Of a stretch of 64,000 bases of DNA, positions 37,604 through 55,095 are shown piece after piece. How positions within the stretch are numbered: position 1 is the stretch's first letter; each line of letters starts with the position of its first letter. This stretch comes from an uncultured Erysipelotrichaceae bacterium (GTDB lineage Bacteria > Bacillota_I > Bacilli_A > Erysipelotrichales > Erysipelotrichaceae), in NCBI GenBank assembly GCA_902472945.1, contig CABRQJ010000001.1, positions 1,102 through 65,101 on the forward strand, written 5' to 3'. The notes under the pieces were generated by a model that was not told the origin of the DNA, ran no database searches, and saw only the letters and a list, made by a program, of their open reading frames with translations. The translations under genes and the position numbers were made by a program.

Positions 37604-39577
37604 ATGAAACTGACTACAAAGAACAATGTGCTTATCGCACGCCATCAGGGAGAAACCCTGACCATTACCCCATGGGGTAAGGATGCCTTACGCATCAAAG
37701 CAACCATGTATCCTTCCTTTACTGACCATAACTGGGCATTGACCTATCATCCGGAAAGTGAAGCAGAAATACAAATTGAAGACAAATGTGCAACCATCAC
37801 AAATGGTAACATCAAGGCAACCATCAACCAGTCTGGTGTACTATCCTTCTATCGCAAGGATAAAGTCATCCTGCAGGAATACTTCCGCAACTATGATGGA
37901 ACCATTTCCAAAGAAAGCAGATGTCTCAAATACACCGGCAGACGTTATCAGCCACATACCGGTGGTGATTACAGATTGACAGTACGCTTTGATGCCAACG
38001 ACAATGAAAAGATCTTTGGCATGGGGCAATACCAGCAGAGACAGACAAACCTCAAGGGTTGTGTCCTTGACCTTGAACAGCGCAACTCACAGATATCCGT
38101 TCCTTTCTATGTTTCTTCCCTTGGCTATGGTTTCCTCTGGAACAACCCGGCCGTAGGCAGAGTTACCTTTGGCAATAACATCACGGAATGGATTTCTGAA
38201 GCAACAAAAGAAATGGATTACTGGATTACTGTCAAAGATACACCAAAGGACATCCTTTCTTCTTATACAGAAGTAACAGGTCGTGCACCTGCCTTCCCGG
38301 ATGATTTACTTGGTCTATGGCAGTGCCGTCTTCGTTACCGTTCCCAGCAGGAAGTCATGGATGTATTGCATAAGGCAGATGAGAAACAGATTCCTATCGA
38401 CATGATTGTTATCGACTTCTTCCACTGGCCATATCAGGGTGACTGGAAGTTTGACCCTGTCTATTGGCCAGATCCAAAGAGAATGATTGAAGAATGTCAT
38501 AAGCGTGGCATCAAGGTATGTGTATCCGTATGGCCTTCTGTTGACAAGAAGAGTGAAAACTTTGCCACAATGTTTGAAAACGGCATGTTAATCCGTACTG
38601 AACGCGGTGCTATTCAGACCTATGAATACCAGGGAGACTGCCTGGAAATTGATGCAACTAATCCTGAGACACGCGACTATGTCTGGAATGTATGCAAAAA
38701 GAACTACTTTGACCTTGGCATAGATGCCTTCTGGCTTGACAATGCGGAACCAGACTATGGTGTCTATGACTTTGACAACTACCGCTATTACCTTGGCACA
38801 GCTCTTTCCTGTTCCAACATCTATCCACAGTACTACAGCCGCACTTTCTATGAAAATGAAAAAGCGTTTGGCAAAGAAGACATTGTCTCTTTGACACGTT
38901 CCTGTTGGGCAGGAAGTCAGAAATATGGCAATGTTGTCTGGTCAGGCGATGTACCTTCTACCTTTGAAGCCTTCCGCGATCAGTTACAATGTGGCATCAA
39001 TATGGGACTGGCAGGCATACCATGGTGGACAAGTGATACCGGTGGATTTATGACCGATGACTGGCAAAGTGAAGAATTCCGTGAACTGCTCATCCGCTGG
39101 TTTGAGTTCAGCACATTCTCACCAGTGCTCAGAATGCATGGTGACCGTGGTCCACACGACATTCCACCACTGGATGATCGTGACTGGGGTGGTGGTTACC
39201 TCTACACAGGTCATGAAAATGAAATCTGGTCCTATGGAGAAGACATGGAAAAGATCTTCCGGAAATATCTGGACATCCGTGAAGAACTCAAACCATATCT
39301 CAGACAACTCTTCAAAGAATCAGAAGAGAATGGTTCTCCACTCATCCGTGCCATGTTCTATGAATTCCCGGATGATGAAAAATGCTGGGAAATCTATGAT
39401 CAGTATATGTTAGGAGACAAATATCTTGTCGCACCAGTACTCACAAAACATACAGTACAAAGAGAAGTGTATCTGCCAGAAGGTACATGGACATTCGATG
39501 GCAGGACATATACAGGTGGAAAAACATATACAATAGATGCGCCTGTTGATGTTATTCCAGTGTTTGAAAAACAATGA
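37604..39577 (+). CDS. Glycoside hydrolase family 31 (alpha-glucosidase/alpha-xylosidase-like)
   Basis: Catalytic-region motifs KFDPVYWPDPKRMIEECHKRGIKV..WP, GIDAFWLDNAEPD (nucleophile region), and WSGD (acid/base region). Confidence 0.8.
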   Translation: MKLTTKNNVLIARHQGETLTITPWGKDALRIKATMYPSFTDHNWALTYHPESEAEIQIEDKCATITNGNIKATINQSGVLSFYRKDKVILQEYFRNYDGTISKESRCLKYTGRRYQPHTGGDYRLTVRFDANDNEKIFGMGQYQQRQTNLKGCVLDLEQRNSQISVPFYVSSLGYGFLWNNPAVGRVTFGNNITEWISEATKEMDYWITVKDTPKDILSSYTEVTGRAPAFPDDLLGLWQCRLRYRSQQEVMDVLHKADEKQIPIDMIVIDFFHWPYQGDWKFDPVYWPDPKRMIEECHKRGIKVCVSVWPSVDKKSENFATMFENGMLIRTERGAIQTYEYQGDCLEIDATNPETRDYVWNVCKKNYFDLGIDAFWLDNAEPDYGVYDFDNYRYYLGTALSCSNIYPQYYSRTFYENEKAFGKEDIVSLTRSCWAGSQKYGNVVWSGDVPSTFEAFRDQLQCGINMGLAGIPWWTSDTGGFMTDDWQSEEFRELLIRWFEFSTFSPVLRMHGDRGPHDIPPLDDRDWGGGYLYTGHENEIWSYGEDMEKIFRKYLDIREELKPYLRQLFKESEENGSPLIRAMFYEFPDDEKCWEIYDQYMLGDKYLVAPVLTKHTVQREVYLPEGTWTFDGRTYTGGKTYTIDAPVDVIPVFEKQ

Positions 39578-39753
39578 GACAACCATTCCAAGACTACCTG
39601 GACAAGATCCAGGCATGTGTGAAGGAACATAATGAAACAAAACTGAGTGACCTCTGCCGGCAAGCATATGCGGACTATTGCAATGGCCTTCTTTCTGAAG
39701 AAGAATACACTAAGATTTACATCCAATGCATGGATTATGCTTATCCAAGATAA
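39574..39753 (+). CDS. Small hypothetical protein (59 aa), translationally coupled to the GH31 gene
   Basis: The ATG overlaps the GH31 stop (ATGA). It is below the ORF-track size cut-off. No recognisable domain. Confidence 0.3.
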   Translation: MRQPFQDYLDKIQACVKEHNETKLSDLCRQAYADYCNGLLSEEEYTKIYIQCMDYAYPR

Positions 39754-39798
39754 TGGCAAAAGCCGTCAGAAAATACAACACTTACAAAAATGAACAAA

Positions 39799-39842
39799 GT
39801 GCCGGAAACCGCATCATTAAGCGGAATCTGGCACTTTTATCA
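39799..39842 (+). terminator. Intrinsic terminator after the MFS-GH31 operon
   Basis: Compound hairpin AGTGCCGGAAACCGC-ATCATTAA-GCGGAATCTGGCACT followed by TTTATCACTTT. Confidence 0.55.
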
Positions 39843-40124
39843 CTTTCAAACTGGCAAAGCTTATCTTACATAATAAGTTGTGGTTAATTCGTCAATTCTT
39901 TACAATATTGCCTCAACAAGTGCATCTATCACCGTGCTTTTGGACTAGTAGTTATTCTTTCCCCTTTGGTCTTAATATGAATATCTCTTTCGGTGTCTGC
40001 GCCACTCCCGATCAGGATAGCATTGTACAGACACATCCAACTTTATTGTCTACATACATATGCATCCAGGACAGAATGGTGTTATTTTATTTCGTATATT
40101 TCATTGTTTTTTCTATTTTCGTAA

Positions 40125-40240
40125 CCATAATTGCATCAAGTATTGCATCTTAATTGCATCTAATTGCATCAATTATTGTGGCTAAAATACGCTTATTTTC
40201 GATAAAATTGCTTCCTAATTGCATCAATAATTGCTTAATT
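40125..40240. repeat. Iteron-like array: about 7 direct copies of (T)AATTGCATC / AATTGCTT at 8-12 bp spacing
   Basis: Sequence ataATTGCATCaagtATTGCATCttAATTGCATCtAATTGCATCaattattg...cctAATTGCATCaatAATTGCTTAATTG. Confidence 0.6.
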
Positions 40241-40282
40241 GTTATCGACTTGCATACCATTTACTACCTCTAGTTTTTCCTA

Positions 40283-40699
40283 TTACATATACTCGTCCTT
40301 CCTTAACTGACGAAGAAGAGATTGAATCTGCCCACGACTATGTGAAGGTAAAACCTGTAACAGTTCATTTAATGGTGTTCCATTCTTTCCGCTCTCTTTA
40401 ATATGCTTAAAAATTAATTCTAAATTAGTGTCTCTATCTAATCCTACAATTCTTGTATTAACTCCAGATTTTCCGATAATACTGTATAGGCTGCGTGCTA
40501 ATACATACTTATTGCGGCTAACATGTTCAACAATTCCAAGTTCTACTAATCTTTTTAATCTTTTTAATCTCAATTGTAAACTTGAAGACAATTTTCTGCC
40601 ATGATATAGTTCATTAATAACCAATAAATCACTGGTTGAAAGAGTCTCTAACTTTTCATCTCCAATTCTTTTAATCAATGAAAGCATTAACCAGTCCAT
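40283..40699 (-). CDS. Small winged-HTH protein resembling the C-terminal DNA-binding domain of AlbA_2/HATPase_c_4 (RecG-C-like) regulators. Possibly a gene remnant
   Basis: 138 aa, with helix-turn-helix-like LVINELYHGRKLSSSLQLRLKRLKRLVELGIVEH. No RBS. It sits in an AT-rich degraded region. Confidence 0.35.
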   Translation of the reverse strand: MDWLMLSLIKRIGDEKLETLSTSDLLVINELYHGRKLSSSLQLRLKRLKRLVELGIVEHVSRNKYVLARSLYSIIGKSGVNTRIVGLDRDTNLELIFKHIKESGKNGTPLNELLQVLPSHSRGQIQSLLRQLRKDEYM

Positions 40700-40799
40700 A
40701 TTCCATCATACTGTGCTTCCAGATCATCAACTAGCGTCAGAATCATCTTAAGATAATAATCACAGATCACCAAAATTGGTTTCAACTCTCGCTCCATTG

Positions 40800-41769
40800 T
40801 TTTTTTTCTTTCCGCAAGGAAAAGGCAACCTAGTAATACTATGTTTCTTTGTTGTCCTGTGCAGCAAAATCAACTTCAAAGGAATCTATTTTTCCTACAT
40901 ATACATCATATCTCTGCGGGGCAATTCCAAATTTACCACATTCTCCAAGATATGCACTGCATCCATTTGTCTTGATTCCAATAGCTTATAGCGAAGTCCA
41001 ATATCCACTACACAATACTTTTCAAGAGATTTAAGGTACTGCTCTCCATTGATGTTATATCGGCTTTGCTTTGCATATTATCTAACTTTCCGACAAATCC
41101 TTCAAATGTTTTTCGACTCGTTTTATGTCCGTCTACCGCCCATCAGAACATTATATCCGCTATCTTTTTAGAAGAACGATGATTTTAGATTGTATCAATT
41201 ACATCCTCAGGACACCTTTCAGCGTCATGATATCTGTGATTTTCTTCCAATTTACAATATCCTAGACAACAATCGTAACGTAAAGCCCATCCAATTAATC
41301 ACGGATTTAGTTCACTGCCCTTATAGTTAAAGGTTATAGGGGAACAAGATGTTTTCCAGATGTTCATTGTATTTTACAACTCAATCTGTCATACTACCTG
41401 TACTCTCCGTGTATTTTTTAAAGATAATGATATTATTTTATTCTGAACACATTGTCCGGAAATCAAAGTAGCAATCTCACTGGAAAGAATATAGGCATTG
41501 GAACCAAGCCTTTCTTTTAAGAATGAATACAACCTCCCGTAATCTGTCAGTTCTTCAAAATGAATTGGAATGGTCCGTTCGTCTTCAATTTCTTGTTCCA
41601 ACAACCATTTATGGCAAATCTTCAGCACACCGGACTTTCCACATCTTGGAATACCAGTAGCACCCTTAAATCGAAAAACAACACTTTCTTGACGACTATT
41701 CAGAAAAAATGTTACATCAGAAGCTTTAAATAATACTGATATATTCAAGCTATGTGTCCAATCATACAC
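40800..41769 (-). pseudogene. Disrupted AAA_14/DUF4143-family ATPase gene. The intact N-terminal P-loop fragment is the 126-aa ORF at 41389..41769; the DUF4143 region downstream is frameshifted and stop-interrupted
   Basis: N-terminal GIPRCGKS P-loop. Minus-strand translation of ~40890..41010 gives YCVVDIGLRYKLL...HILENVVNLELPRRDMMYM*, and in another frame GKIDSFEVDFAAQ. These match the DUF4143 C-terminal signature (D.GL..LL, EN.V..EL.RRG, EVDF) but are broken by stops and frame changes. Confidence 0.5.
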
Positions 41770-41832
41770 AATTTACTAAATACAATAACAGCTGATCTGG
41801 TTTAATTCCCGCAGATTAGTTGCTGATATACA

Positions 41833-44061
41833 TTACTTCTTCCAGTCCAGTATTCTCTTCTTCATACCTTTGATGTCCAGTACACCATAGGCAAAACCTT
41901 TTCTCACAAGTTCTGCTGGTACATACTGGTCATATTTCTCAAAGATGGGCACTTCTTCCGGATAGACAAGGTCTAATGGATCAAATTCCTTTTCTGCTTC
42001 TTCTTTCAGAATCTGGAAGAATTCTTCTTTTGTGACCTGCATGGTGAACTGGATGTAGTATGGTCTTACACTGGTGAGACCTTTCAGGGAAAGCCGCTGC
42101 CCACATTTAATCTTGAGAAACCTCTCCAAAGCAAGAAATGCATAGGAACCAAGCCATGGAAACAACACCCACATCTTTCCACCAAGGTGGATGAGTTCAT
42201 CTTTGTCCATACCTGCCTGATGGAATGTATGTCTTGCGTCCATGAGACGGCATACCGCATGTTTCATAAGATATGGGTAGTTTTTCTCTTCATTGAGCAC
42301 AGCATACATTCTTTCCAATATCCTTGTATGAATATCCCCTGCCACATCACCAAAGTAAGCAGGAATGTTGCCTTTGACAAGTGTACAGTACACAACCCTG
42401 TGTTTATGGTCCACTTCATCTACTACCCAGTCCCTTCCAGCAATGGCAATTTTATCTCCAACTGGTGGCGGTTTGACAATAGTACCAAGTTCTTCAGAAT
42501 CAGCTCTTACACTATATTCCACGTTTTCCTGGAAAACCGCATAGAATTTGTAGTTGTTGACAATTCGTTCCCCCGTTAACCCTGTGATCAGTCCTCCATT
42601 TTCTGTCCGGTTGATGTGATCAATGGACACGAGGTGACGTAATAGTATCTGATAGTCCTCTTTTGTTATATGTTGAAAAGCTGAAAGTGGTAGTACCCTT
42701 GAAGCCAGTTCTGCTGGTGTCATTTCTCCACAGGATGCCAATGTACTCATGGTCTGGTGGTACAAAAGACTATAGGGAAGTCTTTCCATACGCGGTGGTT
42801 CAACAAACCGCTCTTCAATATATAACTGTACTAAGGCAATACCCTGTATCAGATACCAGGGAATCATATCCGGTAACATGGCTCTTGCCTCAGGATGGTC
42901 TTCCCGCATAACAAACCACATTTCTGATGGATCGCCACGCCTTCCGGTTCTGCCCATTCTCTGCAGAAAACCAGATACCGTATACGGTGCATCTATCTGG
43001 AAGGCTCTCTCCAGCCTGCCAATATCAATACCCAGCTCCAGTGTTGCCGTAGCACAGACAGACATCAGGGATTCATCATCCTTCATTTCTTCTTCTGCAC
43101 TTTCCCTGTAAGAAGCAGAAAGATTGCCATGGTGAATGAGAAATCTGTCCGGTTCATGGTTAACTTCACAATATTGTCTGAGATACTGACAAACTGCCTC
43201 ACATTCCTCTCTTGAGTTTGTGAAGATGAGACATTTCTTTCCTCTTGTGTGATTAAAGATATAACCAATTCCTGGATCTGCAGACTCTGGCGCTTTATCG
43301 GTCGGTTCTTCCTGATGGATGGTTTCTGGTATGTCAGTCTTTCCTTCATCTGCCTGTGGACCACTGTTATAGAAGTGCTCCATAGATAACCGCCATATTT
43401 CTTTATCCCCGTCAAAGCGTGGAATGACAGTTTTCCTGTGACTGCCAGCTGATAAAAATTTTCCTGCATCTTCCGGATTGCCTATCGTTGCGGACAGGCC
43501 TATACGCCTTGGATCACATTGTGCAAGACGGCACATTCTTTCAATGAGGCAGAATGTCTGTAAACCTCTGTCTCCTCTTAATAAAGAATGGATTTCATCA
43601 ATGACGATGAAACGCAGATCATGAAACAAAGATGGTATTTCCATGTGTTTGTTAATCATGATAGATTCCAATGATTCCGGGGTAATCTGTAAAATACCCC
43701 TTGGTTTTTTTAACAGTTTCCGCTTCTTTGCAGCATCCGCGTCCCCATGCCACTTTGTGACTGGAATGCCCTGTTCTTCACAAAGTTCATTCATGCGAAG
43801 AAACTGGTCATTAATCAATGCCTTCAGTGGCGCAATATACAATACCCCTACACTATCGGATGGTTCTCCATCCAGCAATGTCAGTATCGGAAAGAAAGCT
43901 GCTTCTGTTTTACCGGAAGCGGTAGAAGCTGTTAACAGGACATTTTCATCGGTATTGAAGATGGCGTCTGCTGCCGCATTCTGTATGCCACGCAATGCCT
44001 TCCATTCCGAGCGATAGATATAGTCCTGGATAAATGGAGCATAGCGTTCAAAGGCATTCAT
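41833..44061 (-). CDS. sngC: SF2 DEAD/DEAH-box helicase (Lhr-like). Candidate Shango SngC
   Basis: Motif I TASTASGKTEAAF, motif II FIVIDEIHSL, motif III LSAT, and motif VI QRMGRTGRRG, with a roughly 300-aa C-terminal extension. The start overlaps the upstream ATPase gene by 4 nt. Confidence 0.8.
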   Translation of the reverse strand: MNAFERYAPFIQDYIYRSEWKALRGIQNAAADAIFNTDENVLLTASTASGKTEAAFFPILTLLDGEPSDSVGVLYIAPLKALINDQFLRMNELCEEQGIPVTKWHGDADAAKKRKLLKKPRGILQITPESLESIMINKHMEIPSLFHDLRFIVIDEIHSLLRGDRGLQTFCLIERMCRLAQCDPRRIGLSATIGNPEDAGKFLSAGSHRKTVIPRFDGDKEIWRLSMEHFYNSGPQADEGKTDIPETIHQEEPTDKAPESADPGIGYIFNHTRGKKCLIFTNSREECEAVCQYLRQYCEVNHEPDRFLIHHGNLSASYRESAEEEMKDDESLMSVCATATLELGIDIGRLERAFQIDAPYTVSGFLQRMGRTGRRGDPSEMWFVMREDHPEARAMLPDMIPWYLIQGIALVQLYIEERFVEPPRMERLPYSLLYHQTMSTLASCGEMTPAELASRVLPLSAFQHITKEDYQILLRHLVSIDHINRTENGGLITGLTGERIVNNYKFYAVFQENVEYSVRADSEELGTIVKPPPVGDKIAIAGRDWVVDEVDHKHRVVYCTLVKGNIPAYFGDVAGDIHTRILERMYAVLNEEKNYPYLMKHAVCRLMDARHTFHQAGMDKDELIHLGGKMWVLFPWLGSYAFLALERFLKIKCGQRLSLKGLTSVRPYYIQFTMQVTKEEFFQILKEEAEKEFDPLDLVYPEEVPIFEKYDQYVPAELVRKGFAYGVLDIKGMKKRILDWKK

Positions 44062-45386
44062 ATCGTAAACTCCGCATACTGGGCATCACTTTCATCCGAT
44101 ACCGCTTCACTTTTAGCATAACTGAAATCATCACTCTGCATCAGTTCTGATACCCCCATAGAAGGATTCTGGTAGAGAAGGTCCGCCAGTTCTATGAAAT
44201 CACGGATGACTTCACGCGGCGTGATATTTTCTTCTGCACCAATTCTTCCATATTCAAGTTTTACAAAATCCGCAAGATCCTCTGTGGAAAGCTTTCGTTC
44301 ATACTGGTACAACCCGGCATGCATATCAGACAGCTTCTCACACAGGATTAACATTTCTTCTGGTGTTAATGGATCAAGGCGGATGACAGGTGATAACAAG
44401 TCACGTGCACCAGGTCTTGAGAACTTGCCTTCCGCAAGTCTTGAACGCAGTGCTTCATAGCTGTAAATACCCCTTCTTTTATCTTCTAATGCCTGTGGGG
44501 TAGAACCCATGATGATACCGAGGTACTTTGCTTTGCCCTGCATGGTGTCGTTATACATGGTCAGTATCTTTTCATAGTTGTACTGGCGGGTGATGGAATT
44601 CGGAATCTTGTACAAATTGACAAGTTCATCGATCATGATCATCATACCGGTATAGCCGGCAAGGCGGAAAAATACCGCAAACAGTTTCAGATATTCATAC
44701 CAGTCATCATCGGTAATGATCATGTTGACACCAAGTTCTTCTTTCGCTTCTCTTTTGAGATTGTATTCACCACGGAACCACCTTGTGACCTTCATCTTTG
44801 TTTCATCATCACCTTCAACATAGGCGTGATAGTACTTTGATAGCAGTATCGCAAATTCAAAGCCATGGACCATTTCACTCAATGCATTGGTTACTGCATA
44901 TATCTTCTGGTCGACGAGTTTTGTCAAAGCAGGGTCACCTATAGAAAAACCACTTTCCTGCACAGCTTCTGTTTGAATCGTATTAATCCATCTGTCGAGT
45001 ACCAGTGTCAAAGCTCCACCTTCTGGTTTAGTCTTTGTGGAAAGGTTGCGGATCAGTTCACGGTATGTAGCCAGCCCCTGGCCACGTGTGCCCTGCAGCC
45101 TTCTTTCCGGAGAAAGGTCCGCATCTACCACAATAAAACCTTTGTCCATGACGTAGTTGCGCAATGTCTGGATGAGGAAGCTCTTGCCAGAACCATATTT
45201 GCCAACAATGAAACGGAAAGAAGCACCACCTTCTGAGATGATGTCCACATCATGTAACAAAGCTGCTATTTCATTCTTTCTGCCTACTGTAATATAGGGA
45301 AGACCAATACGTGGTACTACACCACCTTTTAAAGAATTCAAAACGGTCAATGCAATACGTTTTGGTACATTTCTTTTTTCACTCAT
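44058..45386 (-). CDS. sngB: P-loop NTPase. Candidate Shango SngB
   Basis: Walker A GKYGSGKS and Walker B MIMIDELV. GGGAGGA RBS. It overlaps the upstream gene by 8 nt. Confidence 0.75.
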   Translation of the reverse strand: MSEKRNVPKRIALTVLNSLKGGVVPRIGLPYITVGRKNEIAALLHDVDIISEGGASFRFIVGKYGSGKSFLIQTLRNYVMDKGFIVVDADLSPERRLQGTRGQGLATYRELIRNLSTKTKPEGGALTLVLDRWINTIQTEAVQESGFSIGDPALTKLVDQKIYAVTNALSEMVHGFEFAILLSKYYHAYVEGDDETKMKVTRWFRGEYNLKREAKEELGVNMIITDDDWYEYLKLFAVFFRLAGYTGMMIMIDELVNLYKIPNSITRQYNYEKILTMYNDTMQGKAKYLGIIMGSTPQALEDKRRGIYSYEALRSRLAEGKFSRPGARDLLSPVIRLDPLTPEEMLILCEKLSDMHAGLYQYERKLSTEDLADFVKLEYGRIGAEENITPREVIRDFIELADLLYQNPSMGVSELMQSDDFSYAKSEAVSDESDAQYAEFTI

Positions 45387-47196
45387 AGCGTCCTCCCAAT
45401 AGTTCTTCTACATCTTCACGATACTCTTCCACAAAGGTAATCGTTTCTCCATCGCATTCCAGTATACTATCACCAATTTCATCAAAGAAAGCTTCATTGA
45501 TGGCATCTGTAATCACAGAAGGAAGAAGGTGATGGGCATGTATATATTCCGATACATCCTGACCAGATAGTATTGTCTTCAGAATGAAGAGGTTGTCATC
45601 TTCTGCCTGTTCTACAGTTTCCTTTGTTTCTATTACTTCTTCCACTTCTTCTTTTTCTTCCTCTGTCAGTAATGCCTCACGTGTTATAGCCGCATCATCG
45701 CGGATCTTGTCAAGAAATGCGGAATCGAGATTGACCTTTGGTATATTTCTTTCCAGTTCTTCTTTTCTTTCTTCCGCAAGTGCCTTTTCGACATATGGTG
45801 TAACCCATGCCTCTTCTTCTTTCTTTTTCAATTTATGATAGCCACGCAGGTGTGTCCTTACGACACGGTCGGTTTCATGCAGGATCATCATTGCGATATC
45901 TTTTATTCCATGCATCATAATATTTTCTACTGCCCATTTTCCATCCCTGCAATGATATGTCTCTACTTCATTGTATACATAATCCACATCCGCATGTTTT
46001 TCTACTTCATAGAAAACCGCATTGGAAAATGGTTCCCAGGGCTTCACATCCATTATGGTGACAGAATCTCTGAAATAAGACTGTTTGTCATCTTCAAAAA
46101 TAAGCCTGTACACTCTTGAAGTGATTTTCAGCATATAGTCCTGGTTGGTTTTATATAAAATAGAATTCCCTACATCGCGATACGAAAGATCACTGATTGC
46201 TGAAAAGAGTTCTTCATCTGTGAAATCCTCTGGTCTGCTTGTCACAAGCACAGCATGATTGATTCTCTTATCATATTCATAAGACTGCTTTTTCATGTTA
46301 TTTTGAGAAAGTGTATGGTAGATTGCATAATCCTTTATCCACCTCCCGATTGTGTTGTACTGATTGTACATTGCCCTGGGGCCAAAATAGCGTTCAGCTA
46401 TTACACAAAGTTTCTGATATCCATCCAGGGCATCTTTGACACCAATGCCATTGAGCAGTTCATATATATACATATAGATAAAGGAAGAGCAGGCAGAACG
46501 ATAATTCTTTCTCCTGACCTGCGTACGCCAGGAAAAGTAGCTGATCAGCTGGCTTGTATTGAGATCATGATATGTACAAAAATATCGTGTAAAATTTCCC
46601 TTCCATTCCTTAAAATGTCCATCTTCATAGTCCTCCATGAACTTTGCCTGGTGATAGAAATTACGGGCTTTGGATACATGTAATGGTTCACCCGGGTATT
46701 CTTTATACATGGCTTTCATTTGTGAAATCTTCTCGGGCACTATTCTTTGTGGATGTTGCACAGGATAAGGAGAAGGTGGTACAGGTGTGGAGTGGTAGAT
46801 ATTGGTTTGTCCTTTACGGTTGTTGTCAAGGACAATGGTGTAGCCCTGCTTTCTTTCTTCTTCTACAGCACGATCAAAAAGTCGGCATACAACTTCACAA
46901 TCCGTCATATCATCTATCACAATGCCTATCCAGTTACTGCCCTTCATGAGAAAGGGCATGGTTACATAGCTGTGCAACAGATCATTATATGTTGCTGGTC
47001 CGCATTTGATGTCACAGCGTTCAATGATCTCTCCGGTTTCCTCACTATATTCTTTCATCAGCACTGCCAGCCATTTGCCACTTCTGGCATGGATGACAGA
47101 AACACCAGGCTGGTTACTCCAGCTGGTTTCTTCATATAACTGGTATGTTTCTCTTGCGTATACTGAAAGGTCCTGTAATTCCACAATATCCTCCAC
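45379..47196 (-). CDS. sngA: Large alpha/beta protein with an acidic Glu-rich C-terminal segment. Candidate TerB-N/TerB-C-type Shango SngA (assigned mainly by synteny)
   Basis: 605 aa, first gene of an overlapping three-gene operon with a P-loop ATPase and an SF2 helicase. That is the Shango architecture. The start is GTG at 47196. An alternative GTG at 47184 has a better-placed GGAGGA SD. Confidence 0.55.
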   Translation of the reverse strand: MEDIVELQDLSVYARETYQLYEETSWSNQPGVSVIHARSGKWLAVLMKEYSEETGEIIERCDIKCGPATYNDLLHSYVTMPFLMKGSNWIGIVIDDMTDCEVVCRLFDRAVEEERKQGYTIVLDNNRKGQTNIYHSTPVPPSPYPVQHPQRIVPEKISQMKAMYKEYPGEPLHVSKARNFYHQAKFMEDYEDGHFKEWKGNFTRYFCTYHDLNTSQLISYFSWRTQVRRKNYRSACSSFIYMYIYELLNGIGVKDALDGYQKLCVIAERYFGPRAMYNQYNTIGRWIKDYAIYHTLSQNNMKKQSYEYDKRINHAVLVTSRPEDFTDEELFSAISDLSYRDVGNSILYKTNQDYMLKITSRVYRLIFEDDKQSYFRDSVTIMDVKPWEPFSNAVFYEVEKHADVDYVYNEVETYHCRDGKWAVENIMMHGIKDIAMMILHETDRVVRTHLRGYHKLKKKEEEAWVTPYVEKALAEERKEELERNIPKVNLDSAFLDKIRDDAAITREALLTEEEKEEVEEVIETKETVEQAEDDNLFILKTILSGQDVSEYIHAHHLLPSVITDAINEAFFDEIGDSILECDGETITFVEEYREDVEELLGGRYE

Positions 47197-47211
47197 TGTT
47201 TCCAGTGACTA

Positions 47212-48018
47212 TTATAATGCATGTTTCTGTTTCTGATTGTACACAAGCATGCACAATGACAACACGATCAAAAGAAATCCACTCACAACAAATGGCATAT
47301 TGGAAACAGATACCGATCTTCCTAGTATTGCATTCGTCAAAGAAAGAGATAACCCAGACACAACAAAACCAGACAGGATGACCAATATACCTGTTATAAG
47401 CAAAGCATATGCTGTATGGGAGAGAGGACTATGCTTTGCATAAAGCACAAATAGAAGAATAGAGGCAATGGCTAATATACCGGCAAATACCGGTCGTACC
47501 GTATAGAGATATAACAGGGCTGCCACTTTGATGAATAAACTATGTACACCACTGGTAATACCAGAAATATAGGTATTCATCGCTTCTGTACCATAGTCAA
47601 TACTTTCCATCAAACCTTCTTCATCCACCGTCATATCACAGGCATTCAGTTTCTCAACTGTTCTGTACAACAGCTGTTCTTCTTCCTTAGTAATGTCTGG
47701 TTCTTTAAACAATGTATCAAAGGCAATGCTTTCAGCAGCACTGTCCATATAGACAGCACTGATCTTACGGAATATGCCATCCTCTAACATTTCTTCCTGC
47801 AATGACACACCATCTATATCCACATCATTTTCAGCATAGATGACATCATTCATGCGCAATATATATGCCCTTCCAACATACCACTCTCCAAGAGCAGAAG
47901 AAACACTATAGCGCAAGGCACTCATAACCATTGCCCAAAACAGAAGTATCACTGCTGAAATCACAAACCATGTCCGTTTCATAGCATACATTATACGCGC
48001 ATATTCCTTATCTTTCAA
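47212..48018 (-). CDS. Hypothetical membrane protein (5-6 TM), 15 nt upstream of and co-oriented with the Shango-like cassette
   Basis: N-terminal TM helix, a ~120-aa soluble loop, then 4 C-terminal TM helices. There is no terminator between it and sngA. Confidence 0.65.
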   Translation of the reverse strand: MKDKEYARIMYAMKRTWFVISAVILLFWAMVMSALRYSVSSALGEWYVGRAYILRMNDVIYAENDVDIDGVSLQEEMLEDGIFRKISAVYMDSAAESIAFDTLFKEPDITKEEEQLLYRTVEKLNACDMTVDEEGLMESIDYGTEAMNTYISGITSGVHSLFIKVAALLYLYTVRPVFAGILAIASILLFVLYAKHSPLSHTAYALLITGILVILSGFVVSGLSLSLTNAILGRSVSVSNMPFVVSGFLLIVLSLCMLVYNQKQKHAL

Positions 48019-48858: not shown

Positions 48859-51800
48859 TTATTCAGCTTCTTTTCTGCGCCTTCTCAGGATCATAACACA
48901 TGCCATACCTCCCGCAAGCAGTACACCTGCCCAGAGTCCGGCATTTGCATAGTTACCTGTACCTGGCTGGTTTGTGGAAGATGTCTTTACAAATTCTGCT
49001 TTGATTTCAATGTTGCCATTGACCGCAAATGCCTTGATCAGAATTTCTCCTGTCTTTGCATTGTATGTAAAGCTTTCACTTGCAAGTTCATTGCCACTCA
49101 CAAATACCTTGATGCTTTCTGGCAGGCTATAACCTTCTGCAGGTTTGAGGACTGCCTTATAGTCTTCACCACGTACTGCTTCAGTTAGAGACACTGTACC
49201 ATTTGTTGAAGAGAGCTTCACACTGAACTTCTCCACAACCGGTGTGAGTGCCTTGAACGCTGCACGAATTTCCACATTGCCAGTCACTGCCTCTGCATTG
49301 ATAGTCAGTGTACCAGTCGTAGCATCATAGCTGTACTGATCAGATGTTAATGCAATGCCATTCACAAGGACTGTTACAGTTTCTGGTAATGCATAACCTT
49401 CTGCTGCCTGCAATTTTGCGGTATATGCTTCACCACTTACTGCTTCAAATGCGCCAACAAGTGTTCCGTTTTCTGCAGAAATGGTTACCGTGTACTTATC
49501 CTTGACTGGTGGATTGACTTCTGCTGCCTTGAACGCTGCACGAATTTCCACATTGCCAGTCACTGCTTCAGCATTGATAGTCAGTTTACCAGTAGTAGCA
49601 TCATAGCTGTACTGATCAGATGTTAATGCAATGCCACTAACAAGGACTGTTACAGTTTCAGGTAATGCATAACCTTCTGCCGCCTGCAGTGTTGCGGTAT
49701 AGGTTTCTCCTTCTGTTGCTTCTTTGGATCCAACAAGTGTTCCGTTTTCTGCGGTGATGGTTACCGTGTACTTGTCTGGTGTTACCGCTTTGATTTCTGA
49801 CCTGTCACGGACACGGAGTCTGTTACCACCCGCATCATGGGATACAAAGCCGATAGCACTGATCTTAGCACCTTCTTTGACAAAGTCTTCCAATGGTTTT
49901 GAACTTTCATCGGAATAACCGATGTAGCCATCGATGAATACACGTGCTTCTACACCACTTTCATCTTTTACCAGAATGCTTTCCACAAGACCTTCAGCTA
50001 CTGTCACTTTTGTGACAGTACCTTCAACTCTCACGAGTCTGCCAAAGTTTGTGGCATAGTCATTTGCTTCAGCTGTGGTGACATCACTGATCACTACATC
50101 TTTAGAACCTTCCAGTACGGTGACATTGATGGCAGAAAGCTGTTTGTCACCAATGTATTCACTGATGGAACCTGTAATCTGTACCTGGTCTCCACGACGG
50201 ATGTTGCTGTCATCAATCGGGAAGACGTTGATACCATTACCTGCATCATCCTGGATGTAGATGGTATTGAAGAATGCATTGCCGCTTTCTGCTGTACCGT
50301 TGGCTACTGTACCAACAACGGTGAACACATCACCATTAGCACCAGCTCTTGCTTCTGTGATTGTGCTGATGACTGGTTCTTTCTTGACCATGTTCAGGAT
50401 GTTCTGTGCCATGATGCCATTGGAGTAGCTGACCTGATCTTCGGCTGCTACTTCAAAGTTGGAACAGAATACAGTACCAGAGACAAAGACTCTGCCTTCT
50501 CCTACCTGTTCTGTTGCCATGGCAACAACATCACCCTTCTGGACAACAGCTTTATCTGGATCATATGGATCACTATAGCTCATCACTGGCTTATCATGAC
50601 CTTGTGCAGGATTCTTACTGTTGATGGAATATGTTGTATCATGTCCATAAACAATAGCTGTACCACTTCCAACACTGATGGAACATCCAGAATAGGAACT
50701 ATAGGCTAGACCAGAGTCAACAACACCAGCCAGCACTTTCTGTACAACAGGATCGGTACTTCCTGTATTGAAGTCATCGAAGTAGAGACGATATGGCTGA
50801 CCACCATTTTTATCCTGATCAATGAGTTCATCATCATTGACCCTCATCGTAGATCCAATACCCTCAAGCAATGCATTTGCCTGCTTATAAGTTGTATGTG
50901 GCAAGCCACTATTAGCGTCCTGGTAGTCCGCTAGACCGCAGACAATCACGGTTCCACCACGCTTTACATAGTCGCTGACAACCTGGATGAATTCCTTTTC
51001 GAATACACTTGGTACTGCATCACCGGTATAGTCACTTGTGTACTTGAGTGGTGAAGAGATGACAAACAGAGAAACATCTTTGAGTGCATCTGCTGTGATT
51101 GTTTCACCAGGCTGTGCAATGCGTACCTGGATATTATCGGCAGTACCCATATTGATGAAGTTTGTCATATTGCCAGAGTAGTAGCCATTGACATAGTCAT
51201 TGTAGTGTGTGCCATCAATGAGTACCTTTGTCGCAATGGCAGGATCTGATACTGTCAGTTTCAGAACATCTGTAAATGTGAATTCTTCACCATTGATCAA
51301 TGCCTTCATCTGTACATTGATGTTGAAACCACCTGCAGTACCTGCTACATAGTCGAATGCATATGCAGCAGAAGTTCTTGCGCCGATGACACCACTGTTA
51401 CCAAGACCTGTTACATCTGCTGTATGGAATGGTTCTGTTTCACCTTCCATAGTATAGGTGAGCGATGTAACCGTCATATCCGTACTCAGGTTGTTATAAA
51501 TCTGGCTGGAGATTTCAATTTCATCACCCTTGATTGGTAATGCCACACTGCTATCGGTGTTGGAAACACCCGCATTGACACTTTCACCAACCCATACTGG
51601 TGCAGTTACGGCAATGTTCTTATCTGCCTGTGTTACACGCAGATAGTAGTAACCATAAGTAGATGGAAGATCATCGAATGTAATGTCTGCACTTGTGCCT
51701 GTAAAGGTTGTTTCCGCAAGTGTCTGACCACCATTGACAATGACTTCTACCTTTGTTTCACCTTCTGTATCCGTTGGATCTTCAATAGAAGCAGTGATAT

Positions 51801-54800
51801 TGATGGAATCCTGATCAGGAAGAATAGAACCCATCGCATTGCCATTCAATGCATAGAGAATGGAAAGATCATTATCTTCTGTCGCATAGACACGATAGTT
51901 CTTCATCGCATCATAGATCGCTGCTTCTGAAAGATCAGTTGCCAGTACGACACTTCTTGCTGTGTTGGAATCACCCCAGTTACCCTTATGGTTATCCTGG
52001 TTGTTTGTTGGTGCTACATGCCATCCCTTATCCAATGCACGTGTGTAATATGCATAAGATGGGAAGTAACCAGAACTGCCGATTGCACCTTCACCATTAC
52101 CAACTTCGATCAATGTCATCTGGTTATCGATCACCGGATCATAGAGGGCAAAATCCATGAAGTCACCGAATGTATCACCTGGATGGTTAAACTGGGAAAT
52201 GGTTTCCGGATTCTCATTCAATGTATCGAAGTAAGCCTCCAGTACATCGTAGTTATCACCTTTGCGGTATGGTTCAGCATTGCGGTTTTCAAAGCCCTCA
52301 GAATTGAATGTATTGATATGACCAGGTGCACCACCAGACCATGTCATCTCAAAACCATACAAACCGACAAAGTCATCTTCACGCTCTGTAATATCCCTTG
52401 CGCCCTGTCTGCCTTCATGCCATGAAGCATTCTTCTTTTCCGCATCTTCATCACCAAGATGTGTAGTTCCAGCAGATGGCAAACCACTCTGTCCTTCAAA
52501 AGAATTGGAATGGTCTGTCAAAGCAAGGAAGTCGAGGTTTTCTACAGAAGACGCATGATCAAATGCCTGTTCTACCGTACCTGTACCATCAGAAAGATTG
52601 GTATGGGCATGGAGCTGACCAAAGTACAGTGTATAGTCACCAAGACTCATCGGTGCCTTATAGGTAAATGTAACTACTTCACCCTGCTCTGCCTCAGCAG
52701 TATCAGTTGCTGGAATATAGGCAAATGCCTTGATAATAACCGGCTTATCCTTTTCAGGTGTATTTTCAATCACAATTGGTGTGCTGTACTTCTGTTCATC
52801 CTTCACTTCCGGATCAGCAGGTTCAGTACCATCTGTTGCCATCGTGTAGTAAATCTCTGCACCTGTTGCGGCAGTCAATGTAATTTCCTGTCCTGCTTCA
52901 ACACTGGCACCACTCTTAGGAGAAGCCTCTACAGAAAGACCTTCTACCTCTGGTTTATCTGGTTCTGGCATATCCGTAACAACATAGAAGGAAAGCTGGA
53001 ACTGAGCATCGGATGCGGCACTACTTGAATTGTATGTACTCCAGTTACTGTACTGGTCATACCATTCCATATAATTGCCACGACCTGTATTACGGATGTT
53101 GTATAATCCATCACCAAGGTCAATCACTTCCCAGTCATCATTCACGGCACCAAGATCCATACTGGAATGGCTCTCTGCCAAACCAATATTCTGTCCATTC
53201 TGGGCAAAGCTGTATGTACCATCCTCATTAGCAATAACAGTCCATACATCTTTTTCTCCATAACCTGTTACGACACCATCCGTAACGGTGATGTCTGTAC
53301 CAACATTGTAGAAACTTGTCTTTTCAGAAGACAGTGCCTTGTTATACGAAGGGGCATAAATGACTACATTATCACCATCTTCGATTGGTCCTTCTGGTCC
53401 TGGAATATCTGTTACAGAATAGAACTTCAAAGCAAACATGCCTTCACTGCCAGAAGCGATGTTGTTGTATGCACTCCAGTAATTTCTGTCCGCATACCAT
53501 TCCATATAGCTGTCACGTACCGTGTTCTTGACGTAATAGCATCCATCTCCGGCATCTTCAAGCACCCACTTATCGTTCTTTCCACCAAGTGGCATACTGG
53601 TATAGGTATCTTCCATACCAATGTTCTGTCCTTGATAGGAGAAGCTGTATGTACCATCCTCATTGACGGCAACAGTCCATACATCCACTTCACTATATCC
53701 GCTAAGACTGCCATCAGCACCTACTGTAATATCCGTACCAGCATTGTAGAAACTGCTTACTACTTTAGTGGACAATGCCTTGTTATACGCAGGGGCAAAA
53801 ATAACTACCTGCTCACCATCTTTGAGTGGTCCTTCTGGTTCTGGTGTATCCGTTACAACATAGAAGGAAAGCTGGAACTGATTATCGGATGCGGCACTGC
53901 TTGAATTGTATGTACTCCAGTTACTGTACTGGTCATACCATTCCATATAATTGCCACGACCTGTATTACGGATGTTGTATAATCCATCACCAAGGTCAAT
54001 CACTTCCCAGTCATCATTCACGGCACCAAGATCCATACTGGAATGGCTCTCTGCCAAACCAATATTCTGTCCATTCTGGGCAAAGCTGTATGTACCATCC
54101 TCATTAGCAATAACAGTCCATACATCTTTTTCTCCATAACCTGTTACGACACCATCCGTAACGGTGATGTCTGTACCAACATTGTAGAAACTTGTCTTTT
54201 CAGAAGACAGTGCCTTGCTATACGCAGGGGCATAAATAACTACCTGCTCACCATCTTTGAGAACAGGTACCTGTACATCTGCTTTGACGGTATATTGCAG
54301 AGTTTGTACAGCACTGCTGTTTTCACCAACTACTGCTACTGCCTTTAATGTGCAGTCTGCTTCAATGACCGGTTTGTTTGTGTCACTGTAGATCTGCCTG
54401 TTGGCATTCGTTGTATCAGATGGGTCGCTGCCATCTAATGTGAAATAGATGGTTGCGTCTAATGTTGCAGAACTCAGGGTGATTTGGGTGCCAGATTCTA
54501 CTTCTCCAGCCTGAGGATCTGCAGCAGGTGCAGCAACCGTAACTTCTCCACTTCCTCCATCACTCAGCTTATAGAGTGTGAACTGATGTGGATAACCGTT
54601 GGGATTACCATTAACAGTTGTTGTCTTGTAGCCACGGAATTTGTTCTGAGAGTTTTTGTTGCTGGCGAGGTAGACGGTATCTGCACCAGTTCCTGCAAAG
54701 GTAAACTTTCCCTCTGTTTCTTCCCATGTCCAGTCGTATGCACCTTCAGTTATGCCATTTTCATTGCCACCTTTTGGTGCAAGGTAAACATCATTTTTGT

Positions 54801-55095
54801 CCTTGATTCTGACAGATTGTCCATTCACTTCCAATGTGACATAGGATGTGGAATGCACAACATCATTTTCTGGTGTTGTTTCAATCGCTGTCACCCATGT
54901 TCCATCTAGTTCACCAACGGCATAATTGGTGTCTGTCAATAGAACATATTCGCCTGTTTCAAGTTCTTTACTAGTTGTGATTTTCTGATAGGTTTTCGCA
55001 TCCTCAGCAAATACTGCACGAGGACCAATGGAAAACAGCATCAGAATTGCCATGACAACAGACAAAATTCTTTGCATGCTTCGCTTCAGTTTCAT
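48859..55095 (-). CDS. 2078-aa secreted, wall/membrane-anchored multidomain protein. Signal peptide; chitobiase/hexosaminidase-C-like and beta-sandwich repeat modules; PHP-family metal-dependent phosphoesterase domain; OB/lamin-tail-like domain as in extracellular nucleases; three C-terminal Ig-like repeats; QPGTG plus hydrophobic anchor plus RRRRK tail
   Basis: N-terminal MKLKRSMQRILSVVMAILMLFSIGPRAVFA. PHP motif LHAHTNLSDG..ALTDH. Internal repeats A-B-A of ~146 aa and three ~96-aa Big-like repeats. The C-terminus NQPGTGNYANAGLWAGVLLAGGMACVMILRRRRKEAE resembles a sortase-type sorting signal. Confidence 0.8.
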   Translation of the reverse strand: MKLKRSMQRILSVVMAILMLFSIGPRAVFAEDAKTYQKITTSKELETGEYVLLTDTNYAVGELDGTWVTAIETTPENDVVHSTSYVTLEVNGQSVRIKDKNDVYLAPKGGNENGITEGAYDWTWEETEGKFTFAGTGADTVYLASNKNSQNKFRGYKTTTVNGNPNGYPHQFTLYKLSDGGSGEVTVAAPAADPQAGEVESGTQITLSSATLDATIYFTLDGSDPSDTTNANRQIYSDTNKPVIEADCTLKAVAVVGENSSAVQTLQYTVKADVQVPVLKDGEQVVIYAPAYSKALSSEKTSFYNVGTDITVTDGVVTGYGEKDVWTVIANEDGTYSFAQNGQNIGLAESHSSMDLGAVNDDWEVIDLGDGLYNIRNTGRGNYMEWYDQYSNWSTYNSSSAASDNQFQLSFYVVTDTPEPEGPLKDGEQVVIFAPAYNKALSTKVVSSFYNAGTDITVGADGSLSGYSEVDVWTVAVNEDGTYSFSYQGQNIGMEDTYTSMPLGGKNDKWVLEDAGDGCYYVKNTVRDSYMEWYADRNYWSAYNNIASGSEGMFALKFYSVTDIPGPEGPIEDGDNVVIYAPSYNKALSSEKTSFYNVGTDITVTDGVVTGYGEKDVWTVIANEDGTYSFAQNGQNIGLAESHSSMDLGAVNDDWEVIDLGDGLYNIRNTGRGNYMEWYDQYSNWSTYNSSSAASDAQFQLSFYVVTDMPEPDKPEVEGLSVEASPKSGASVEAGQEITLTAATGAEIYYTMATDGTEPADPEVKDEQKYSTPIVIENTPEKDKPVIIKAFAYIPATDTAEAEQGEVVTFTYKAPMSLGDYTLYFGQLHAHTNLSDGTGTVEQAFDHASSVENLDFLALTDHSNSFEGQSGLPSAGTTHLGDEDAEKKNASWHEGRQGARDITEREDDFVGLYGFEMTWSGGAPGHINTFNSEGFENRNAEPYRKGDNYDVLEAYFDTLNENPETISQFNHPGDTFGDFMDFALYDPVIDNQMTLIEVGNGEGAIGSSGYFPSYAYYTRALDKGWHVAPTNNQDNHKGNWGDSNTARSVVLATDLSEAAIYDAMKNYRVYATEDNDLSILYALNGNAMGSILPDQDSINITASIEDPTDTEGETKVEVIVNGGQTLAETTFTGTSADITFDDLPSTYGYYYLRVTQADKNIAVTAPVWVGESVNAGVSNTDSSVALPIKGDEIEISSQIYNNLSTDMTVTSLTYTMEGETEPFHTADVTGLGNSGVIGARTSAAYAFDYVAGTAGGFNINVQMKALINGEEFTFTDVLKLTVSDPAIATKVLIDGTHYNDYVNGYYSGNMTNFINMGTADNIQVRIAQPGETITADALKDVSLFVISSPLKYTSDYTGDAVPSVFEKEFIQVVSDYVKRGGTVIVCGLADYQDANSGLPHTTYKQANALLEGIGSTMRVNDDELIDQDKNGGQPYRLYFDDFNTGSTDPVVQKVLAGVVDSGLAYSSYSGCSISVGSGTAIVYGHDTTYSINSKNPAQGHDKPVMSYSDPYDPDKAVVQKGDVVAMATEQVGEGRVFVSGTVFCSNFEVAAEDQVSYSNGIMAQNILNMVKKEPVISTITEARAGANGDVFTVVGTVANGTAESGNAFFNTIYIQDDAGNGINVFPIDDSNIRRGDQVQITGSISEYIGDKQLSAINVTVLEGSKDVVISDVTTAEANDYATNFGRLVRVEGTVTKVTVAEGLVESILVKDESGVEARVFIDGYIGYSDESSKPLEDFVKEGAKISAIGFVSHDAGGNRLRVRDRSEIKAVTPDKYTVTITAENGTLVGSKEATEGETYTATLQAAEGYALPETVTVLVSGIALTSDQYSYDATTGKLTINAEAVTGNVEIRAAFKAAEVNPPVKDKYTVTISAENGTLVGAFEAVSGEAYTAKLQAAEGYALPETVTVLVNGIALTSDQYSYDATTGTLTINAEAVTGNVEIRAAFKALTPVVEKFSVKLSSTNGTVSLTEAVRGEDYKAVLKPAEGYSLPESIKVFVSGNELASESFTYNAKTGEILIKAFAVNGNIEIKAEFVKTSSTNQPGTGNYANAGLWAGVLLAGGMACVMILRRRRKEAE
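49234..49811. repeat. Two near-identical ~288-bp tandem repeats encoding Ig-like (Big) domains near the C-terminus of the surface protein
   Basis: CTTGAACGCTGCACGAATTTCCACATTGCCAGTCACTGC...CATAGCTGTACTGATCAGATGTTAATGCAATGCC appears at ~49249 and ~49537. Confidence 0.75.
52975..54300. repeat. Intragenic tandem duplication in the surface-protein gene. Two near-identical DNA copies (>=330 bp each, 876-bp period) flank a diverged middle copy
   Basis: Shadow ORFs 53013..53231 and 53889..54107 (also 53075..53263 and 53951..54139) translate identically, so the nucleotide sequence is identical over hundreds of bp at an 876-bp offset. Confidence 0.8.

Follow-up and report, generated by a model that had tools for sequence, protein, structure and literature searches.

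We examined a 64,000-nt stretch of contig CABRQJ010000001.1 from an uncultured Erysipelotrichaceae bacterium (the whole 64-kb stretch is called the window below), in which four consecutive minus-strand genes encode a polytopic membrane protein (Mem, gene mem) and three proteins, SngA, SngB, and SngC, that an initial annotation had assigned to the Shango anti-phage system. That annotation had also proposed that mem and the trio form a four-gene variant of Shango. All four open reading frames (ORFs) were reproduced, with sizes of 268, 605, 442, and 742 aa (Table 1), as were the overlaps of 8 nt between SngA and SngB and of 4 nt between SngB and SngC, through which sngA-sngB-sngC appear to be translationally coupled. 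The catalytic motifs reported earlier could be read from the translations as well, namely, in SngB, the Walker A sequence GKYGSGKS (aa 62-69) and the Walker B sequence MIMIDE and, in SngC, helicase motifs I (SGKT), II (DEIH), III (SAT), and VI (QRMGRTGRRG), and the acidic tail described for the 605-aa protein corresponds to an acidic stretch close to its C-terminus.

Two start codons probably differ from those of the longest ORFs. The true start of sngA is most likely the second GTG (47184), giving a product of 601 aa; it is preceded by a GGAGGA Shine-Dalgarno sequence, and gene calls on public contigs give the same 601-aa product. For mem, the ATG at 47982 is the most likely start (256 aa, MKRTW...): it is conserved in homologues, two of which begin there, and in the sister species it follows an AAGGAGG Shine-Dalgarno sequence located 5 nt upstream. 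With sngA starting at 47184, the gap between mem and sngA becomes 27 nt. Thus, the shared strand and the lack of a terminator-like site between the two genes, both noted initially, hold, but the 15-nt spacing given with them probably does not.

Table 1. Positions of the features discussed, in the window and in the contigs used for comparison
Feature	Sequence	Position	Strand	Remark
Membrane-protein ORF (mem)	window	47212..48018	-	268 aa; polytopic; read as a resident gene, not as a Shango component
sngA	window	45379..47196	-	605-aa ORF; TerB_N/TerB_C protein
sngB	window	44058..45386	-	442 aa; BrxC/BrxD-family P-loop ATPase
sngC	window	41833..44061	-	742 aa; Lhr-like SF2 DEAD/DEAH helicase
Promoter-like element TTGAAA-17-TATAAT	window	47990..48018	-	11/12 match; no better one on this strand from 39.5 to 49 kb
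YjbR/DUF419 "double-wing" domain of SngA	window	46849..47184	-	aa 1-112 of the 601-aa form
Most divergent SngA stretch	window	46015..46377	-	aa ~270-390, helical
Decayed AT-rich segment	window	39609..41835	.	2.2 kb, downstream of sngC; GC content 0.35-0.38
GATGCAATTA x4 exact ("iteron-like array")	window	40128..40225	-	within 98 nt
Nested DNA methyltransferases	L059	5932-9964
Nested two methyltransferases and EcoRI-family endonuclease	L026	3783-6813
Nested MmeI-like enzyme, Sel1-repeat protein	L061	9087-9974 and 12554-15574
Nested PD-(D/E)XK nuclease	L071	8917-9999
Nested PD-(D/E)XK nuclease	L075	8902-9999
Nested Sel1-repeat protein	L073	7192-8067
Nested RhuM/Fic	L004	3690-4622
Mem homologue P0126	L178			between GH5 and MFS genes
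Mem homologue P0127				between zinc-ribbon gene and GH95 surface-protein gene
Mem homologue P0128				in capsule-type locus
Mem homologue P0129				between methionine synthase and acetolactate synthase
Mem homologue P0131				after MatE and YccF

Family assignment of the three-gene operon

Searches with the PADLOC hidden Markov models (HMMs) recovered all three Shango components, SngA at E = 1.7e-62 over aa 133-600, and SngB and SngC over their full lengths at 2.7e-188 and 3.5e-281, respectively. With family E-values ranging from 1e-62 to 1e-281, these matches are not due to chance. In Pfam, SngA matches TerB_N (5.8e-21; 75.6 bits, cutoff 25) and TerB_C (2.1e-14; 54.4 bits, cutoff 26.3), SngB matches BrxC_BrxD (PF10923; DUF2791) at 1.9e-166, and SngC contains DEAD and Helicase_C domains together with a weak WH_Lhr match. 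The Shango assignment is thus placed on an HMM basis, and the profiles that the initial annotation had pointed to (TerB_N and TerB_C for the 605-aa protein and a DUF2791-type model for the 442-aa protein) were all positive. Its description of the helicase as Lhr-like is likewise borne out by the closest solved structures of SngC, which are Mycobacterium smegmatis Lhr (5v9x/7lhl, E~1e-31; 5e-31 for 5v9x) and Bacillus subtilis YprA/MrfA (6znp); no solved structural relative of SngB was found by sequence. None of the three proteins has a predicted transmembrane (TM) segment. The three genes are adjacent and co-directional in one operon, and the order SngA-SngB-SngC on one strand recurs wherever a related locus has the complete trio.

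Since the solved relatives closest to SngC, Lhr and MrfA, are repair helicases, and SngB and SngC also match BrxD and BrxHI profiles (6.8e-44 for the BrxD profile on SngB), we considered whether the locus might not be a Shango system at all, but a housekeeping Lhr-type DNA-repair operon or the remnant of a BrxD-BrxHI module, which we take to belong to BREX type 2. BrxD and BrxHI are the next-best PADLOC profiles for the two proteins, and they score 2-4 times lower than the Shango profiles (149 versus 624 bits for SngB and 408 versus 933 bits for SngC). In addition, the NCBIfam BrxD model reaches 151 bits on SngB, far under its 350-bit cutoff, and SngC remains far below the equivalog cutoffs of the Lhr and ligase-associated repair helicases (205 of 850 bits for TIGR04121 and 171 of 849 bits for PRK13767). 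No PglX, PglZ, PglW, or other core gene of BREX was found in the Pfam annotation of all neighbouring genes, and the multi-allelic, recombining SngA described below is typical of defence genes. A non-defence origin is therefore very improbable, and the PADLOC and Pfam matches together with the sub-cutoff equivalog scores argue for a bona fide Shango system. In our view, the region 41833..47196 (minus strand) is very probably a canonical three-gene Shango operon that lies beside a pre-existing membrane gene on the chromosome of a human-gut Firmicute. Members of the Shango family protect Escherichia coli and Pseudomonas aeruginosa against phage about 10-100-fold (PMC10250203; 10.1101/2022.05.11.491447), and the three genes are sufficient on their own in both hosts (PMC10250203). 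In searching the literature, we came across no study of the mechanism or structure of Shango.

The membrane gene upstream of sngA

For Mem, 4-5 TM segments are predicted, and its large acidic loop (~115 aa) is probably extracytoplasmic. It represents an orphan family without a meaningful match in Pfam, NCBIfam, or PADLOC; the AlphaFold2 (AF2) model, built from a five-sequence alignment, is of low confidence, with a predicted local distance difference test (pLDDT) score of 64, and Foldseek found no match with E<0.8 in PDB and BFVD. Among 5.8 billion proteins, a word-indexed search detected only five clusters of close homologues (68-99% identity). Every contig read for these clusters displays the same layout, in which a divergent SDR gene is followed by mem, the 27-nt gap, and sngA-sngB-sngC, and this layout recurs in sister species as well as in numerous strains of a single human-gut species. 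Because all co-occurrences of mem and Shango thus map to one orthologous site in one genus, they amount to a single evolutionary event. Among 80 other Shango loci, which are genome loci retrieved through SngB, mem is absent from 79, the exception being a sister-species metagenome-assembled genome (MAG, L001) with the same site; in the other loci, sngA is preceded by varying genes. A filter-only HMMER profile search of 1.84 billion representatives identified 34 distant full-length Mem homologues; in the five whose genomic contexts were examined (P0126, P0127, P0128, P0129, and P0131; Table 1), the neighbourhoods are of a housekeeping type and none contains Shango beside the Mem homologue.

One of these contexts, contig L178, is particularly informative, since its synteny with the region in the window extends over both flanks. 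On one flank, L178 encodes counterparts of Y_phosphatase3 (58% identity), iPGM (93%), and a DZR zinc-ribbon protein (74%); on the other, of MFS (76%), nucleoside deoxyribosyltransferase (70%), SNF (81%), and NUDIX (73%) proteins and, farther along, of a peptidase S9 (65%) and two HAD hydrolases (66% and 78%). Its Mem homologue (39% identity) is separated from the convergent MFS gene by 55 nt, with no Shango genes between them. This synteny implies that mem is an old resident of the site and that GH31, the decayed segment, and sngCBA were inserted between MFS and mem; relative to L178, the insertion would span 37604-47211 of the window. This Shango-free equivalent of the site came from the Mem profile search; a search of metagenome contigs for an empty site with the SDR flank returned only an identical contig and non-syntenic homologues of at most 81% identity. 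When sister species are compared, omega for Mem is ~0.2 at a synonymous divergence (dS) of ~1.2, which indicates purifying selection on a functional gene. We also noticed that Mem (47212-47982 compared with 8001-8801 of L178) has diverged much faster than its syntenic neighbours (39% versus 58-93% identity); one possibility is that Mem is exposed at the surface and subject to diversifying pressure.

Comparison of closely related strains separates mem from the operon in another way. In strains whose SDR protein is 100% identical, dS is 0-0.013 for SDR and mem, whereas it reaches 0.17-0.38 for sngB and sngC, in mosaic patches, and 0.9 for sngA in L168 and L171. In the latter two contigs, the sngA allele has been replaced (window 45096-46993) by one encoding a SngA of 70% protein identity; nevertheless, mem and SDR remain 99-100% identical in nucleotides. 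The recombination tract starts within sngA, at 46993; the 333 bases before it, to which the 3' end of mem belongs, contain no mismatch. Imports thus cover sngABC and stop before mem, and the membrane gene behaves as flanking core DNA.

Transcription appears to link mem and the operon all the same. The promoter-like element TTGAAA-17-TATAAT (Table 1) is the only strong minus-strand site of its kind within or upstream of mem. Its -35 hexamer TTGAAA is conserved in the sister species (comparison with L001, L084, and L085). A 12-nt deletion in the present species removed the AAGGAGG Shine-Dalgarno sequence of mem (47982-48018), and a perfect TATAAT now sits 8 nt upstream of the mem ATG; mem mRNA may therefore be leaderless. 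Since the only strong promoter-like site lies upstream of mem and no terminator-like site follows mem, sngABC are probably transcribed by read-through. We consider that the Shango insertion probably captured the promoter of the resident gene, that is, promoter capture rather than partnership.

These data bear on the four-gene proposal, in which Mem would serve as an anchor or sensor for the TerB-like SngA in a membrane-surveillance version of the system. The 27-nt gap is kept in every strain and sister-species contig examined, mem and sngA lie on the same strand with one promoter-like site upstream, Mem and SngA evolve similarly fast between sister species (omega 0.17-0.20), and the TerB systems Bunzi and Dionysus do include TM proteins (10.1101/2022.05.11.491447; 10.1101/2025.09.30.679545). 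However, all of the linkage stems from that single event, mem is missing from nearly all other Shango loci, all five distant Mem relatives examined, including the one in L178, stand without Shango, the SngA swap in L168/L171 was accompanied by no co-variation in mem, and three-gene Shango is active alone in the two hosts mentioned above (PMC10250203). A four-gene Shango is therefore improbable, and the proposal did not survive the comparison with homologous cassettes, which carry mem only at the one orthologous site. Judged from synteny and distribution, the membrane gene is a resident neighbour and not a fourth Shango component, and its linkage appears coincidental even if co-transcription is still likely.

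SngA diversity and a possible mode of action

The N-terminal 112 residues of SngA, which the PADLOC profile does not reach, resemble the MmcQ/YjbR proteins. A profile built from 83 SngA sequences matches PSPTO_3016 (2kfp/3h9x) with E=1.2e-10, and the AF2 model of SngA (pLDDT 84) has 3h9x_A as its best Foldseek match (probability 1.0, TM-target 0.78); the Pfam YjbR profile itself is weak on SngA (5.2e-5, under the cutoff). Profile comparison and modelling together confirm a YjbR double-wing fold for aa 1-112, with a putative role in DNA binding. Beyond this domain, neither profile search nor Foldseek revealed a solved structural relative. The domain is present in 47 of 66 SngA proteins of the gut/rumen clade to which the locus belongs. 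DNA binding has been predicted for YjbR, which is similar to the T4 MotA C-terminal domain and is a structural neighbour of the McrB-N domain, which flips 5-methylcytosine (PMC7641849, PMC3424535), and a YjbR-TerB fusion has already been recorded by Bell, Wolf and Koonin 2020 (PMC7641849).

SngA is also the most variable part of the system. At least four SngA allele groups with 66-71% identity exist in the genus, two of them in one species, where they sit on a near-identical SngB/SngC background. Between alleles of ~70% identity, the divergence is concentrated in a helical stretch (aa ~270-390), which has 37-57% identity versus 80-87% in most other windows of the protein. Across the gut/rumen clade, whose loci carry labels of Firmicutes, Treponema, Bacteroidales, Chloroflexi, and other phyla and come mostly from MAGs, SngB is 80-84% and SngC 76-83% identical, compared with only 30-40% for SngA. 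Nonsynonymous divergence (dN) across phyla is 0.6-0.67 for SngA and 0.12-0.19 for SngB and SngC, a difference of about 4-5 times. Recent horizontal gene transfer between phyla was ruled out as the cause of the 80-84% identity, as synonymous sites are saturated; strong constraint in an old and widespread clade fits better. Outside the clade, SngB identity drops to 40-52% (plasmid-borne relatives in Bacillus, Paenibacillus, and Proteobacteria).

Several further observations concern the mobility and integrity of these genes. Compared with L081, L168, and L169, sngB and sngC of the window contain patches of 75-90% nucleotide identity amid 97-100% (for example, 44300-43900, 43500-43000, and 42600-42400), which suggests repeated recombination with foreign Shango alleles. 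An apparent disruption of SngA in L175 proved to be a scaffold gap of 100 N and not a pseudogene. SngB/BrxD-like ATPases were observed on 696 plasmid records, mostly conjugative and many of them from Klebsiella and Salmonella; the closest plasmid match, from Clostridium estertheticum, has 78% identity, and NZ_CP086238.1 (275336-276664) is one plasmid example. No SngB homologue was found in the phage collection.

Some clade members have extra genes nested between sngA and sngB or between sngB and sngC, among them methyltransferases, restriction enzymes, and nucleases (Table 1). Of 73 sngA-sngB junctions, 5 exceed 400 nt, as do 5 of 76 sngB-sngC junctions.

The YjbR fold, the rates and alleles of SngA, the Lhr-like SngC, the likeness of SngB and SngC to BrxD and BrxHI, and the restriction-modification and nuclease genes nested in related operons all point to a DNA-directed SngA. 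We propose that SngA could be the specificity or sensor subunit, equipped in this clade with an N-terminal YjbR double-wing domain and a hypervariable helical region, and that it would recognise phage DNA, an intermediate of phage replication, or a phage protein. It would then engage, load, or license the highly conserved motor formed by SngB (BrxD-like ATPase) and SngC (Lhr-like 3'-5' helicase), and this motor might act on phage DNA and block replication. The domain content and the evolutionary pattern behind this model are observed, and we infer from them recognition, complex formation, and phage arrest. That SngA is a diversifying, nucleic-acid-directed specificity subunit licensing a conserved ATPase-helicase motor on phage DNA is a serious possibility, which we put forward tentatively. 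We are slightly more reserved about the related idea that SngA is an exchangeable module swapped by recombination, so that the SngA allele would set the target range and Shango would not be a membrane-surveillance system; it, too, should be regarded as possible.

A different mode of action for the same three genes would be membrane surveillance or abortive infection, with the TerB modules of SngA sensing perturbation of the envelope or membrane. Membrane surveillance was proposed in the discovery paper (10.1101/2022.05.11.491447), TerB has been reported to be membrane-associated or amphitropic (10.1101/2022.05.11.491447; 10.1101/2025.09.30.679545), and the operon encodes no nuclease. Such a role fits poorly with SngABC proteins devoid of TM segments, with a putative DNA-binding double-wing domain in SngA, with a Lhr-type DNA helicase and a BrxD-like ATPase as its partners, with the DNA methyltransferases, restriction enzymes, and nucleases nested in related operons, and with the lack of any recognised toxin or pore-forming effector. 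We regard it as unlikely, but as an alternative that deserves attention.

Several points weigh against a three-gene, DNA-directed system. Neither Pfam nor PADLOC recognised a nuclease, toxin, or pore-forming effector in the operon, and the step that stops the phage is conjecture. DNA binding by the YjbR domain is a prediction, and 19 of the 66 clade SngA proteins do not have the domain. Furthermore, the sole mechanistic suggestion made for Shango is membrane surveillance via TerB (10.1101/2022.05.11.491447), which would suit a membrane partner. The 27-nt gap, the lack of a terminator, and the lack of a strong internal promoter make co-transcription of mem and sngABC likely, and likely co-transcription makes an accessory role for the membrane protein conceivable; that this genus has recruited Mem for such a role nevertheless seems hardly probable to us.

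If SngA is indeed a specificity module, Shango would be a DNA-sensing helicase defence in which the SngA allele determines the target range. From the YjbR domain, direct recognition of nucleic acid is predicted, and the natural SngA alleles of ~70% identity on almost identical SngB and SngC within one species offer a ready allele-swap system for mapping specificity; both make the mechanism of Shango more testable.

Genomic surroundings and comparison with known systems

The initial annotation had placed the cassette in an island with decayed ATPase and helix-turn-helix (HTH) genes and an iteron-like repeat array. The decayed segment downstream of sngC gave fragmentary matches only, to PADLOC PDC-S01 (1.7e-13, a piece), AAA_14 (0.002), and DUF4143 (0.056), weak hits from which it appears to hold fragments of an AAA_14/DUF4143-type ATPase gene. 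A 138-aa ORF within it had no family match and, read by eye, may be an HTH-like C-terminal fragment. In L168 and L169 the segment is swapped for ~490 nt bordered by the GH31 stop and the sngC stop, and L171 has the same gene layout. The array comprises four exact copies of a 10-mer, GATGCAATTA, which are its only exact copies in the window. The strain-variable segment and the insertion relative to L178 agree with an island. On the other hand, the window contains no integrase, transposase, tRNA gene, or Rfam match, and the cassette is a fixed chromosomal feature in all strain contigs that were examined and in the contigs recovered from sister species. Elsewhere in the window, a gene at 48859-55095 encodes a repeat-rich, cell-wall-anchored surface protein of 2078 aa with CHB_HEX_C and Fn3_assoc domains; its called length is 2079 aa in L168, 1986 in L170, 1515 in L169, and 1370 in L174, presumably owing to repeat expansion and contraction or to assembly artefacts.

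The definition of Shango (SngABC) comes from Millman et al. 2022 and Johnson et al. 2023, and PADLOC provides models of it. The present locus shares with it the TerB_N/TerB_C protein, the BrxC/BrxD-family ATPase, and the Lhr-like SF2 helicase, all co-directional and with intact catalytic motifs. It differs in that SngA has an extra N-terminal YjbR/DUF419 domain of ~112 aa outside the PADLOC profile, that it belongs to the gut/rumen clade with only 40-52% identity to plasmid-borne relatives, and that an unrelated resident gene for a membrane protein directly precedes it. Little is gained from it as one more Shango locus, since the family is known and included in PADLOC, and such trios are annotated as TerB, ATP-binding, and helicase proteins in public records. 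It may rather serve as a worked example of how insertion beside a resident gene can produce tight linkage, and of why a 27-nt gap and a shared strand and promoter do not make a shared system.

The SngA domain has the fold of the MmcQ/YjbR (PF04237) double-wing proteins, but here it occurs in a recognised Shango operon, a link to Shango that we did not find in the literature. A TerB-type protein is common to Shango and to Bunzi and Dionysus, and the TM proteins of the latter two provide the analogy behind the four-gene idea. Nevertheless, there is no PADLOC match to Bunzi components here, SngA has no TM helix, and the membrane gene appears to be pre-existing and is not conserved with the system. 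BREX offers a parallel for the motor: SngB is homologous to BrxD (PF10923) and SngC to the Lhr-like helicase BrxHI. In place of the methyltransferase and phosphatase of BREX, Shango has a TerB protein. The homology of SngB and SngC to BrxD and BrxHI suggests a common ATPase-helicase motor acting at the DNA level.

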